Below the pieces are notes generated by a model, which worked only from the letters and a program-made list of their open reading frames with translations, was not told the origin of the DNA and made no database searches. The position numbers and the translations under genes are program-made. Positions 5,921-57,770 of a DNA stretch of 64,000 bases are shown here, one piece after another (the first letter of the stretch is position 1; every line of letters begins with the position of its first letter). The DNA comes from Nanobdellati archaeon (lineage in GTDB: Archaea > Nanobdellota > Nanobdellia > CSSed11-243R1), in NCBI GenBank assembly GCA_027007025.1, contig JALTFL010000001.1, positions 248-64,247 of the forward strand, given 5' to 3'.

Positions 5921-6030
5921 TTTTATGAAAGCACGTACGGAAAAATATAAGTTTTTTCTCTTAGTGCAGTTTCTCTTTTCTAAAGAGAAAGTGCTTTCTT
6001 TAGTGCAGCTTTCTTCTTAAGAAAGGTACT
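5921..6030. repeat. cluster of degenerate CTTTCTY..RAGAAAG hairpins plus GCACGTACGGAAAAA motif (terminator-like, same family as tRNA-intron core)
   Basis: between convergent helicase and TyrRS 3' ends; repeated tttctcttttctaaagagaaag / tttcttcttaagaaagg hairpins and T6 tract. Confidence 0.5.
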
Positions 6031-7045
6031 AGGAAAGGAAAGCGTCGCCAAGAGCTTCGAGTTCATCCTTGTGCTCCTCAAAATACTTTCTTATTTTGGA
6101 GAAGATGTTCACGAGCTCGTTTGTCAGCGCCGCCTTGATGTCCAGCGGGTGGAGTTCCTTATCAATGAACTTTCTCTCCAAGTCGTCATAAAACTCGAAT
6201 TTTATGTCGCCACCGAATTTTTCAGGGCGCTTTATCTCGACACTTCCCTTAAGCGGGAAGACAACATATTTGTAAAGTTGTAATATTGGATTGTCCTTCA
6301 CCTCACCTGCCGGACAATACGCTTTCTTGATTTTCTCACGAATTGCTTCCTCGGAATCATGAACTTTTATGCTCGTTTCGGGAATTGACGCGCTCATCTT
6401 TACGCCGGGACCTTTCAGGCTAACCATCAGCGGCATCATAACTTCCACCCTTGATTTGTATCCCACTTTTGGAAGGTACTCCCTTGCATACGCAAGAATG
6501 TGTCGCTGGTCTATGCCGCCAAGCTGTATGTCAACTTTTAGGTATTCCTCGTCGAGCGCCTGCATCACAGGGTAAATTAATTCAGAAACCTTTGGGTTTT
6601 TCATCCTAGTGACTTCTGACGCCGCCCTTGTCGCCCTCTTGACTGTCGTGAAAGATGAAAGCTTCAGGATGTCTGCCTGGTATTCCCTTGTGAGCTCGAA
6701 GTCAGAGCCAAAGACAAATTCCGGCTTTGTTTTCCACGGAATCGCTAGCTCTAGGCATTTTTTCACATACTCCCTTCTCTTTTGAATTTCGTCCCATGGG
6801 GTTTTCAAGTCATCAAGCGCGGCGTGTATGTCGGCAATCATTATTTTCGTCTTTATTCCTGCCTTGCTGAAATCGAAAATCTTGCCCATTGTTGCTAGAT
6901 AACCCATATGAACTGGTCCTGTTGGGGCAATTCCCCAATACGCAGTAGGATTGCTTTTTGTCTTCAGCAGTTCCCTCAGTTCATCTTCAGTGAGAATTTC
7001 CTTTGTGTTCTGCTTCGCCAATTCGAATTTATCCTTCCATTCCAT
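6029..7045 (-). CDS. tyrS: tyrosyl-tRNA synthetase (archaeal type)
   Basis: near-collinear with M. jannaschii TyrRS incl. KMSAS and C-terminal KRPEKFGGD; HIGH region reads HMGY. Confidence 0.9.
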   Translation of the reverse strand: MEWKDKFELAKQNTKEILTEDELRELLKTKSNPTAYWGIAPTGPVHMGYLATMGKIFDFSKAGIKTKIMIADIHAALDDLKTPWDEIQKRREYVKKCLELAIPWKTKPEFVFGSDFELTREYQADILKLSSFTTVKRATRAASEVTRMKNPKVSELIYPVMQALDEEYLKVDIQLGGIDQRHILAYAREYLPKVGYKSRVEVMMPLMVSLKGPGVKMSASIPETSIKVHDSEEAIREKIKKAYCPAGEVKDNPILQLYKYVVFPLKGSVEIKRPEKFGGDIKFEFYDDLERKFIDKELHPLDIKAALTNELVNIFSKIRKYFEEHKDELEALGDAFLS

Positions 7046-30367: not shown

Positions 30368-30380
30368 AAGAAAAACTATT

Positions 30381-30412
30381 TCTTCCGTGCACGCTTCTTT
30401 CTAAGAAGGGTG
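30381..30412 (-). repeat. extragenic copy of conserved intron-core element, immediately 3' of tRNA, followed by U-tract
   Basis: minus strand reads CACCCTTCTTAGAAAGAAGCGTGCACGGAAGA then TTTTTCTTTT. Confidence 0.7.
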
Positions 30413-30414
30413 TA

Positions 30415-30574
30415 TGGCCCGGCGGAGATTTGAACTCCGGACCTCTGGTTTTCTGAGACCTGAGGTAACCCACAGGCGTCATATAAGACCAGCGCTCCAA
30501 CCAGGCTTCACCCAAACACCACTTCTTCCGTGCACGCTTCTTTTTAAGAAGGGTGCTTGTTAAGCTACCGGGCC
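30415..30574 (-). tRNA. tRNA with two introns; anticodon most likely UAU (Ile), assignment tentative
   Basis: acceptor GGCCCGG/CCGGGCC, D arm GCTT..GAGC, T arm CGGAG-TTCAAAT-CTCCG; D-loop intron 30508-30561 (54 nt, contains element) and anticodon-loop intron 30451-30481 (31 nt); mature 75 nt. Confidence 0.7.
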
Positions 30575-30624
30575 ATAAGGTAGGAAATGGAAATATTTAT
30601 TTAAAAAGTTATCTTTTGGTACAC

Positions 30625-55174: not shown

Positions 55175-56404
55175 ATGGGTAAAATTGCACCTGTATCCGC
55201 GAAGTATATAATTCGCGTGAAGATACATGTTGATGGAACAGTCGAAAAGCCGGATGTCATTGGAGCTATTTTCGGACAGACAGAAGGGCTTTTGGGAACA
55301 GACCTCGAATTGAGGGAACTACAAAAATCAGGAAGAATAGGTAGAATAGAAGTTAATCTTCAAAACAAAGGTGGAAAAGCAGATGGAGAAATAACAATTC
55401 CTTCTTCTATGGATATGGCAGAGACAGCCATTGTCGCGTCAGCTATTGAGACAATCCAAAGGATTGGACCATGTAACGCGAAACTTGTAATAGAGAACAT
55501 AGAGGATGTCAGGGTAACCAAAAGAGAGTATGTCATTGAAAGGGCAAAGGAACTCTTGAAGAACATGATTGACAAGGGACCTGATTCCGCGGAGCTCATG
55601 GAAGAATTGAAGCAGACAGTCAGGGGAATGGAGCTTGTCAATTACGGGAAAGACAAAGTTCCAGCAGGGCCTAATGTAAAAGACAGCGATGACATAATTG
55701 TTGTTGAAGGAAGAGCTGACGTAATAAATTTGCTTAAGCATGGTTTCAAGAACGCAATAGGGTTGAACGGAACTTCGGTGCCGCCAACAGTCGCCGAGCT
55801 GACGAAGACAAAAACAACAACAGTATTTGTTGACGGAGACAGAGGAGGAAACTTGATTGTAAGGGAACTTATGGCAGTAGGCGACATTGACTTTGTAGCT
55901 ATGGCACCGTCAGGAAGGGAAGTTGAAGAATTGACAAAGAAGGAAATTCACAAGTGCTTGAGGTCAAAGATACCTTTGGACCAGTTCAAGGAGGAGATGG
56001 GTGAAAGCTCACGAAACGGAAACCTTCACAGCAGCAAGCCACAGAGGAATGACAGAAATGATGACAGGAGACCACAGCGACAAAGACAGCAGCAAAGGAA
56101 GCGCGACATACACCCTGAATACGCGAAGCAGTTCAAGAAAATGCTCGACGAGCTTATAGGAACACGCGGGGCGTACTTGCTTGACGCGGACATGAATATT
56201 CTTGGCAAAGTTCCTACAAAAGAGCTCAAGAACGCGATAAGGAGCCTTCCGGAAATAAACATGATTGTTATGGACGGCCAGGTTACGCCTGAAATGATAA
56301 GGTTCATCGAACGTTCGTCCGTGAACACAGTCGTAGCGGAAGGAGCGACGGGCACCAGCAGAAGATTGAAGATATTGACAGCTGCTGACTTGGGAAGCGC
56401 TTAG
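55175..56404 (+). CDS. dnaG: archaeal DnaG primase (Toprim)
   Basis: conserved N-terminus MGKIAPVSAKYIIRVKIHVDG, Toprim IIVVEGRADVINL..DGDRGG. Confidence 0.9.
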   Translation: MGKIAPVSAKYIIRVKIHVDGTVEKPDVIGAIFGQTEGLLGTDLELRELQKSGRIGRIEVNLQNKGGKADGEITIPSSMDMAETAIVASAIETIQRIGPCNAKLVIENIEDVRVTKREYVIERAKELLKNMIDKGPDSAELMEELKQTVRGMELVNYGKDKVPAGPNVKDSDDIIVVEGRADVINLLKHGFKNAIGLNGTSVPPTVAELTKTKTTTVFVDGDRGGNLIVRELMAVGDIDFVAMAPSGREVEELTKKEIHKCLRSKIPLDQFKEEMGESSRNGNLHSSKPQRNDRNDDRRPQRQRQQQRKRDIHPEYAKQFKKMLDELIGTRGAYLLDADMNILGKVPTKELKNAIRSLPEINMIVMDGQVTPEMIRFIERSSVNTVVAEGATGTSRRLKILTAADLGSA

Positions 56405-56438
56405 AAAACTTTTTAACCTCTTTTTTCTTATTTTATTT

Positions 56439-56707
56439 GGGCGAGCTAGGTGGGCCGTTGGGCGTGGCCTGTCAATCCCAAACCGTCCTTAGGGGAGCCG
56501 AAGCCAGCTTGAGGGTTGTCACATTTTGAGTAAGCTCATGCCGTATCTGCGAAGCCTCGCCCCAAGGGATGTGTTATTCTGTGAACCGTGCGAGGTCCGG
56601 AAGGAAGCAGCACTAAGCGGAGTAGCATATGCTCTTGGGATACGGGGTGGAGAAAAGGTATGGGGACTGCTCCTGGTGCGGCTTCTCGATGGCTGGTGTG
56701 CTCGCCT
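56439..56707 (+). ncRNA. signal recognition particle RNA (7S/SRP RNA)
   Basis: terminal helix GGGCGAGC/GCTCGCCT, universally conserved helix-8 GGTCCGGAAGGAAGCAGC, GC-rich, TATA-like TTTTTAA ~25 nt upstream. Confidence 0.85.
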
Positions 56708-56712
56708 ATTAA

Positions 56713-56747
56713 CTTCTTTTTCCGTGCACGCTTTTTCCAAAAGGGTG
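56713..56747 (-). repeat. inverted copy of conserved intron-core element directly 3' of SRP RNA, followed by T6
   Basis: plus strand cttctttttccgtgcacgctttttccaaaagggtg is reverse complement of CACCC..GCGTGCACGG..AAG consensus. Confidence 0.7.
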
Positions 56748-56794
56748 CTAAGAAAGCTGCACCAAAAGAAACACTTTTTTACATATGTGAAAAC

Positions 56795-57349
56795 TTATTT
56801 AAGAAATTCTTTTATTTTTTCAAGCAAAAATGGAAACTTTGTGTACCCCGCTTTTTCGTTGAAGTGCCCAGCGCCGTGAATTATTATTGGTTTCACATTA
56901 AGTTTTTCCGCGAGTTCATAAGTTTTTTCTAAAGGAATATAAGGGTCGTTGTCAGAACCGATTACAAAAATGTTCTTGCAGTTTTCTTTTATTTTCTTCC
57001 AGTCAAACGGCTTTTCGAAAAAGGTTGAATTGATTTTATCGACTTCGGCGAAACCTAGTGCTCCGAGGAAACCCGCTATTAAAAAAGTAGCTTTGGTTTT
57101 ATACTTCTCTAAAAGATGCAATACAAATGAGGGTCCAATGCTGTGAGCAACAAAAATTGTATTCTCGTCAACATACTTTTCATAATCTTTGAAAACATTT
57201 AGCCAATTTTCTAAGGATTGCCCTTCTGGTGTCGGGAATTTTGGCACAAAGACTTTGCAACCCACCTTCTCGAGTTCTTTCTTCAGCCAAGGAAACCAAT
57301 TTTCCTGCGGATGCCCAAATGCGCCGTGTATGATGAAAACATTTGTCAT
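56795..57349 (-). CDS. alpha/beta-fold serine hydrolase (YdeN/RBBP9-like esterase)
   Basis: 184 aa, nucleophile elbow AHSIGP, HGAGH near C-terminus. Confidence 0.6.
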   Translation of the reverse strand: MTNVFIIHGAFGHPQENWFPWLKKELEKVGCKVFVPKFPTPEGQSLENWLNVFKDYEKYVDENTIFVAHSIGPSFVLHLLEKYKTKATFLIAGFLGALGFAEVDKINSTFFEKPFDWKKIKENCKNIFVIGSDNDPYIPLEKTYELAEKLNVKPIIIHGAGHFNEKAGYTKFPFLLEKIKEFLK

Positions 57350-57477
57350 AATCTCTCTAATAATCTTTGTAGTTATATCTTTATCCTTTTAGAGCTCTTT
57401 TTTTGGTAAATATTTTTCCTTGGAAAAACGTTTGCTGCGAAAGAAATATAAGGGGTTTATTCATTCTATTGGATTAT

Positions 57478-57725
57478 GCCGGGGTCGCCTAGCACCACCC
57501 TTTTCTTAAAAGAAAAGCGTGGACGGAAAAGAAGAGGGTGATGGGTTATCTGGTTATGGCGCTGGCCTGCTAGCACCCTTTCTTAGAAAGAAAGCGTGCA
57601 CGGAAAGAAATTTCCGTGGGTCGTAGTCAGCCAGTTTCCTTCGGGATCCGTGAGTTCGAAAGAGCCTTTCTCTTGCGAAGAGAAACCCTCGGGAAAGAGA
57701 AGCTCCGATTTTCTCACCCCCGGCG
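57478..57725 (+). tRNA. class II tRNA with three introns; anticodon most likely GCU (Ser)
   Basis: acceptor GCCGGGG/CCCCGGC, anticodon stem CTGGC/GCCAG loop CTGCTAG, 15-nt variable arm, T arm GTGAG-TTCGAAA-CTCAC; introns 57493-57549 (D-loop), ~57574-57629 (anticodon loop), 57662-57712 (T-loop); mature 84 nt; TATA-like AAATATAA ~30 nt upstream. Confidence 0.7.
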
Positions 57726-57770
57726 CTTTTTTTAGAAAAATTAATAATCAACATTTTCATTAATATTCAC

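Follow-up and report, generated by a model that had tools for sequence, protein, structure and literature searches.

What is a piece of a tRNA intron doing in inverted orientation immediately behind an SRP RNA gene, and does its presence there mean that two unrelated stable RNAs share a device that matures or terminates their 3' ends, as a preliminary description of this locus had proposed? The stretch of DNA analysed, hereafter the window, comprises 64,000 nucleotides (positions 248-64247 of contig C1) of a 0.68 Mb Nanoarchaeia genome (G000; five contigs, 678 kb, 93% complete), whose source run is labelled as a hydrothermal vent metagenome. The features on which the argument rests are the following:

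56405-56416, plus strand: putative SRP promoter, a BRE-like AAAAC followed by the TATA box TTTTTAA (read from the sequence)
56439-56707, plus strand: SRP (7S) RNA gene, 269 nt (Rfam RF01857 Archaea_SRP, full model)
56713-56747, minus strand: inverted copy of a GCGTGCACGG-type intron/spacer repeat, antisense to the SRP RNA (exact core, nhmmer profile)
56714-56770, plus strand: predicted RNA hairpin formed by both repeat copies (RNAfold)
56750-56772, plus strand: sense partial copy of a GCTGCACC-type repeat (13-mer AAGCTGCACCAAA)
56775-56780, plus strand: T6 tract, the third oligo-T after the SRP gene (sequence; T7 in the sister strain L030)
56795-57349, minus strand: serine hydrolase gene, 184 aa, convergent with the SRP RNA gene (Pfam PF06821, E 4.7e-20)
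57413-57453, plus strand: degenerate sense element and tRNA-Ser TATA box, the retained right part of the ancestral spacer
57478-57726, plus strand: tRNA-Ser(GCU) with three introns, the ancestral neighbour of the SRP gene (sequence; 5' end GCCGGGGTCGCCTAG common to relatives)

The SRP RNA gene is genuine, probably transcribed independently and otherwise ordinary, and in itself a matter of routine annotation. When the window was searched with cmscan (Rfam 15), RF01857 was the sole match above the gathering score, covering model positions 1-317 with 121.5 bits against a gathering score of 96.5 (E 4.4e-27), at exactly the boundaries first given for the gene (56439-56707, plus strand); the helix 8 motif and the 5'/3' closing terminal helix from which it had been recognised are both contained in the alignment. 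The Alu domain, helix 5, helix 8 and the terminal helix are present and helix 6 is absent, with helix 8, its GGAA tetraloop and its SRP54-binding internal loops aligned at high posterior probability. The GC content of the RNA is 58%, against 32-44% in the window, and an SRP54 M domain (PF02978) is encoded elsewhere in the genome (C5:73186-73488). Upstream, the TATA box lies at -29 to -23 from the first SRP base within a AAACTTTTTAA block (-33 to -23), which recurs at approximately the same distance from the SRP RNA in the relatives G001, G002, G003 and G005 and probably acts as the promoter; with a TATA box conserved in this position, transcription should begin at or next to the first base of the SRP RNA. 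The open reading frame directly upstream (55175-56404) encodes a 409-aa Toprim-domain protein (DnaG-like), and its stop codon lies 1 nt ahead of the promoter block.

The absence of helix 6 extends beyond this genome. The 40 positions of RF01857 between helix 5 and helix 8 are matched by no nucleotide in G000 and by 0-2 nt in all four SRP RNAs aligned, the other three (L001, L003 and L010) belonging to other families of the class. Archaea_SRP was detected in 24 of the 31 genomes of the class, and all 24 RNAs are correspondingly short, with lengths of 263-279 nt. A search for SRP19 (PF01922) in the 31 class genomes (G000 and 30 relatives) returned no match, though its sensitivity is limited, Sulfolobus having been missed among the controls. 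This protein has been reviewed as present in all archaeal subgroups, coexisting with helix 6 (Zwieb and Bhuiyan, 2010, PMC2905702), and a limited literature search, which is no proof of novelty, returned no paper on the loss of either helix 6 or SRP19 in DPANN or Nanoarchaeota. If confirmed, the double absence would represent a bacterial-like simplification of the archaeal SRP that has not been described in the literature searched.

Behind the gene, a 5-base gap (56708-56712) separates the SRP RNA from the inverted copy, which starts at the sixth base after the SRP 3' end and thus where the preliminary description had placed it, 6 nt downstream. Read on the SRP strand, this copy is composed of T5 (56717-56721), the core (56722-56731), T5 (56732-56736) and GGGTG (56743-56747). 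The 10-mer GCGTGCACGG is exact on the minus strand at 56722-56731, and a profile from the other copies of the repeat matches 56712-56747 on the minus strand in genome-wide nhmmer searches (E 3.3e-7 and 3.2e-5). The same 10-mer has four exact occurrences in the window, six when matches with one mismatch are included as compared to 0.68 expected, and eight in the 678-kb genome as compared to none for the reversed control. Only the SRP copy, among 25 in the genome, has A-runs of A5 on both sides of the core. Directly after it comes the sense copy, composed of a purine arm, the core CTGCACC and a mirror purine arm; its 13-mer AAGCTGCACCAAA occurs five times in the genome and never as the reversed control, with three of the four other sites in tRNA-like (intron) sequence and the fourth in a repeat array 3' of tRNA-Arg, and the copy is about 95% conserved in the sister strain. 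The T6 tract previously noted as a terminator is indeed present at 56775-56780, where it aligns with the TTTTGGTG closing segment of the intron copies of the GCTGCACC subtype and reads TTTTTTAC. The two T5 tracts, the sense copy, the mutual complementarity of the two copies and the absence of helix 6 had all escaped the first reading. RNAfold predicts that the copies pair into a hairpin over 56714-56770 (-17.6 kcal/mol, z -2.77, a value reached by 3 of 200 shuffles), with the T6 tract 4 nt further on. A consensus scan for intrinsic terminators does not call this hairpin, because its loop and internal loops are too large for a simple consensus, and the combined sigma-70 and intrinsic-terminator scan of the SRP flank returned nothing relevant.

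The inverted copy belongs to a large repeat family. An iterated nhmmer search assigned 25 copies in the genome to the GCGTGCACGG subtype: 20 in tRNA introns, three in tRNA trailers, directly after the discriminator base (C1:30627, C4:27625 and C4:143712), and two solo copies, namely the SRP copy and C4:4965; these classes were read from the flanking acceptor, D-arm and T-arm sequences, because most of the intron-rich tRNA genes escape both ARAGORN and the Rfam tRNA model. Each copy is built of a pyrimidine arm, a loop, a complementary purine arm, a GC-rich core and a mirror-image purine arm. Scanning the 0.68 Mb genome for this architecture with arms of at least 7 nt returned 109 elements, against 0-1 in block shuffles, and the SRP copy is recovered with 6-nt arms. 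The GCGTGCACGG subtype is therefore nested in about 100 pyrimidine/purine-arm hairpin repeats, a family that makes up most tRNA introns in G000. In the anticodon intron of tRNA-Ser, as read from the sequence, the CACCC of the element and a 3' GGGTG/GGGTC form the outer helix of a canonical BHB.

That one and the same element flanks a tRNA and the SRP RNA, as originally claimed, was borne out: a tRNA at approximately 30406-30575 (minus strand) carries one copy in its intron (30514-30555) and a second directly after its discriminator base (30371-30412), while the copy at 56713-56747 follows the SRP RNA. An element lies 1-11 nt past the tRNA 3' end in six of the 22 tRNA genes scored and most of the 22 lack one; several of the trailer elements are then followed by an antisense copy carrying T5 or longer. 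Of the elements behind stable RNA genes, the first is in sense in seven tRNA trailers (the six just mentioned and C4:27625) and at the SRP loci of four relatives, with the SRP locus of G000 as the exception, a pattern that is not a statistical test because these loci are related, and that hints at a constraint which a purely neutral model does not predict.

Members of the family have also gathered at other places. An array of three to four overlapping copies in alternating orientation fills positions 5950-6040 of the window, between two ORF ends, and one part of it nearly matches the GCTGCACC-type copy of the SRP flank (86% complementary over 28 nt). Past the tRNA at C4:143747-143877 (minus strand), the segment C4:143590-143760 contains two copies, sense and then antisense, separated by a T8 tract; behind them the last 17 bases of the tRNA occur a second time, in what resembles a duplication of either the 3' exon or a target. 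The gene for RNase P RNA (C4:96706-97102; L026) scores only 63 bits against RF00373 and apparently contains two insertions of the repeat architecture (~96733-96769 and ~96796-96870), one of them antisense, which may be introns or replaced stems.

Comparison with relatives shows how the spacer came to its present form. The hydrolase gene has been inserted, in the G000 lineage, between the SRP RNA gene and its ancestral neighbour, tRNA-Ser. This tRNA(GCU) lies 27-80 nt past the SRP RNA and on the same strand in G001 and G002 (same genus) and in G005 and G006 (another genus of the family), as compared to 770 nt in G000, where an alignment (A1) reveals a G000-specific block of about 720 nt between the two genes. 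The right end of the ancestral spacer, including the tRNA-Ser TATA box, is retained at 57440-57477 according to the same alignment, and the part of the G002 spacer that directly precedes tRNA-Ser aligns with the right element (57413-57453). The hydrolase gene was not found in G001, G002, G003 or G005, and in G004 it is located 34 kb from the SRP gene. As to the repeats, a sense-oriented element, each time with a different core, is found 3-7 nt past the SRP RNA in G001, G002 and G005, and no element of this architecture follows the SRP RNA in the family members G003, G004 or G006, the last of which has a 27-nt spacer to tRNA-Ser.

A tRNA gene behind the SRP RNA, on the same strand, was observed in several families of the class (L002 in G022, L010 in G017 and L011 in G020, as well as L008, L003, L020 and L023). 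The gap between the two genes is 1-3 nt in three cases and 27-80 nt, to tRNA-Ser, in the family of the window, mostly with no T5 in between. This arrangement suggests SRP-tRNA co-transcripts, in which RNase P, by cutting at the tRNA, may define where the SRP RNA ends.

The most informative comparison is offered by L030, a metagenome contig of a sister strain. Its gene order, tRNA-Ser/hydrolase/SRP, is that of G000; the hydrolases are 86% identical, and the two sequences are about 95% identical over the stretch that starts at the hydrolase stop codon and takes in the T7 tract and the sense copy. At the position of the inverted copy of G000, L030 has instead a 30-nt perfect hairpin in sense orientation, nearly identical to that of G001. 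Contigs from three vent-metagenome runs were also compared: one from the source sample bridges 56589-56993 exactly, confirming the assembly across the SRP-hydrolase junction, and in another from the same sample, belonging to a related population, 56707-56800 is replaced by 116 other bases. Two scans of the metagenome contigs with SRP patterns returned none and one contig (L028), respectively, the latter ending, flankless, at the SRP 3' end. In light of the sister strain, the relatives and the sample variant, the inverted copy appears to have displaced an older sense hairpin very recently, at the level of the strain. The near-identity of the G001 and L030 hairpins could, for its part, reflect function and not shared ancestry only. 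The locus thus provides a dated series of four states, i.e., the ancestral SRP-hairpin-tRNA-Ser arrangement, the hydrolase with the old hairpin in L030, the inverted copy in G000 and a further allele in the same sample, which documents the fast movement of intron-forming repeats in and out of non-intron sequence and bears on the origin of archaeal tRNA introns.

Archaeal RNA polymerase terminates at oligo-T. Past the SRP end, T5 occurs at +10, T5 at +25 and T6 at +68, so that three tracts of T5 or longer fall within 75 nt, a density (at least three per 80 nt) found in 1.5% of intergenic windows; runs of at least five T on the non-template strand shortly past the 3' end are the sequence expected of a candidate oligo-T terminator. 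In this genome, T5 or longer is present within 50 nt of 50% of the 22 tRNA 3' ends, 33% of ORF ends and 19% of random sites, and it is carried by 19 of 89 repeats in antisense orientation versus 10 in sense, a doubling of the chance. No T5 was detected in the SRP-tRNA-Ser spacer of the relatives in which tRNA-Ser follows directly, and there the two RNAs may be co-transcribed. A dedicated SRP stop would have become necessary with the insertion of the convergent hydrolase gene. The T5, T5 and T6 tracts would stop transcription of the SRP gene here, and a repeat-derived oligo-T stop region appears to be the most likely function of the flank.

Other explanations have been weighed against this one. 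The element could be an RNA-level 3' maturation signal common to tRNAs and SRP RNA, folding with the flank into a BHB-like structure that the tRNA splicing endonuclease would cut. The genome does encode the endonuclease (PF01974, 101 bits, a 177-aa frame at C4:141089-141349), element copies begin 1-11 nt past the 3' ends of several tRNAs, and a precedent exists in the permuted SRP RNA of Thermoproteus, whose BHB is cut by this enzyme (PMC4731332). A BHB at the 3' end of the present gene is, however, excluded, because its second strand would need a 5' leader and the TATA box at -29 to -23 leaves none; the BHB-like fold envisaged in the preliminary description did not appear when the RNA was folded together with 0-35 nt of leader and 20-75 nt of trailer; these two flanks, both T-rich, did not pair with each other. 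Moreover, the SRP copy is antisense, so that the flank RNA is the complement of the element found in tRNA precursors, and on its own strand the CACCC of the copy is not followed by GGGTG, so the spliceable CACCC/GGGTG closure does not form. The inverted copy is also missing from the sister strain and from all relatives. We regard a maturation signal of this kind as very improbable, and the SRP flank is neither a BHB or splicing substrate nor a conserved SRP-specific signal. A separate candidate, a tRNA or half of a split tRNA concealed on the opposite (minus) strand next to the element, was rejected, as no tRNA-like arms surround the copy. According to another explanation the inverted copy belongs to the hydrolase block and is a recombination scar, left when inverted composites bracketing the block recombined and brought in or flipped the gene. 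The copy is indeed sense to the hydrolase gene, 45 nt after its stop codon, and in a local alignment the left composite, in reverse complement, is similar to the right border (57397-57452; score 33, reached by 3 of 300 shuffles), the two bracketing stretches lying at 56700-56800 and 57380-57470; the gene, missing in the same-genus genomes, occurs elsewhere in G004 and in two metagenome contigs, and triplex-type repeats have been tied to local instability in Escherichia coli (PMC4666352). Nevertheless, L030 possesses the hydrolase block and the right border and lacks the inverted copy, which must therefore have been gained or lost independently of the hydrolase. The similarity of the borders is weak and of low complexity, so that they look only weakly like inverted composite repeats, and elsewhere the hydrolase is found without such a copy (G004) or with one of a different subtype in the other orientation (L029). 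A scar is accordingly judged quite unlikely. Arrival of the repeat together with the hydrolase gene was rejected: homologues 63-80% identical (G004, L029, L031 and L032) are not beside an SRP RNA and did not carry this repeat along.

A more serious alternative is that selection acts on structure, with a hairpin a few bases past a stable RNA working in either orientation and being kept although its sequence is swapped, by pausing, terminating or defining the 3' end by means of either an RNA hairpin with its U tract or a polymerase-blocking DNA triplex. Such a hairpin starts 3-7 nt past the SRP RNA in five of the eight family-level sequences (G000, L030, G001, G002 and G005) despite their differing sequences, the trailer elements of six of the 22 tRNA genes, several with an antisense T5+ copy behind them, occupy a comparable position at 1-11 nt, and the other solo copy, C4:4965, has an identical head-to-head two-copy layout near a gene end. 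Against it stand the lack of the hairpin after the SRP RNA in G003, G004, G006 and the rest of the class, the 27-nt spacer of G006 that does without an element, the majority of tRNA genes that lack one and the modest fold z-scores of the hairpins of the relatives (-1.5 to -2.0). The bacterial PIT/TM-ECO repeats, of the same architecture, are moreover described as devoid of terminator activity in E. coli, in a passage that cites earlier work (Holder et al., 2015, PMC4666352). On balance the recurrence in five of eight sequences leaves some room for a structure-level function, which we consider possible though unlikely. Its widest form, in which triplex-type repeats would serve as interchangeable, orientation-tolerant 3'-end cassettes for stable RNAs (SRP RNA, tRNAs and perhaps RNase P RNA), swapped by recombination and stopping or pausing the polymerase by an RNA hairpin with a U tract or a DNA triplex, is decidedly doubtful; if true, it would define a repeat-borne class of archaeal terminator.

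The explanation that we favour, and consider probable, is that the 3' spacer of the SRP gene was colonised by two head-to-head repeats of the hairpin family, whose T5, T5 and T6 arms now terminate a gene that has come to stand alone. Directed by the conserved TATA box, transcription would begin with the first SRP base or one adjacent to it and would end at the oligo-T tracts supplied by the repeat arms, after which the short trailer would be trimmed back to the terminal helix; the inverted copy, a recent arrival, may be kept for shielding the convergent gene from read-through. The repeats would occupy the SRP spacer for the reason that they occupy introns and tRNA trailers, namely that they are tolerated there. 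The 3' device that the preliminary description had inferred from one element beside two stable RNAs thus survives in part: the maturation component falls, the copy being antisense, devoid of a BHB and not conserved, and the termination component is retained in a weaker form. The flank is a by-product of a repeat family filling sequence that is transcribed but discarded, and not a device shared with tRNAs as such. On the favoured explanation, the locus would be a concrete case of repeat arms turned into oligo-T terminators after an insertion had parted an SRP gene from its tRNA.

Several known systems resemble the present one in part. With the archaeal SRP RNA of RF01857 the gene shares the terminal helix, the Alu-domain helices, helix 5 and a helix 8 with GGAA loop and SRP54-binding motif, and it differs from it, together with three relatives, in the missing helix 6 and, at the level of 31 genomes, in an SRP19 that was not found. 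The permuted SRP RNA gene of Thermoproteus (2015, PMC4731332) likewise occurs in an archaeon with very many tRNA introns and raises the same question of the splicing machinery moonlighting on SRP RNA, whereas the gene of G000 is colinear and complete and has no leader-trailer BHB. In the Thermoproteales, transposed BHB introns have been reported in tRNA genes (Fujishima et al., 2010, as cited in PMC4731332). They share with the G000 family the recurrence of one short family in the introns of many tRNA genes at different positions, and the CACCC/GGGTG helix beside the canonical BHB in the G000 tRNA-Ser anticodon intron is in keeping with them; the G000 family differs in occurring outside introns as well, in either orientation, including the unspliceable SRP copy.

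The closest architectural match is found in bacteria, in the intrastrand-triplex repeats PIT, BoxC and TM-ECO (Holder et al., 2015, PMC4666352), which have the same succession of pyrimidine arm, loop, purine arm, spacer and mirror purine arm and are similarly intergenic, without strand bias, arranged in tandem inverted pairs and variable in sequence between close strains. The repeats of G000, recognised here from their sequence architecture, differ in their archaeal host, in the location of most copies in tRNA introns and in the GC-rich, partly palindromic core of each subtype. The flank finally resembles archaeal oligo-T intrinsic terminators in its T5, T5 and T6 tracts within 75 nt past the mature 3' end in the transcribed strand, and differs from them in that the tracts lie within a hairpin and originate in mobile-repeat arms. 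A hairpin is dispensable for archaeal termination at oligo-T. To these systems the present locus adds the specific anatomy of an SRP RNA 3' flank, a comparative series of its spacer and the observation on helix 6 and SRP19.
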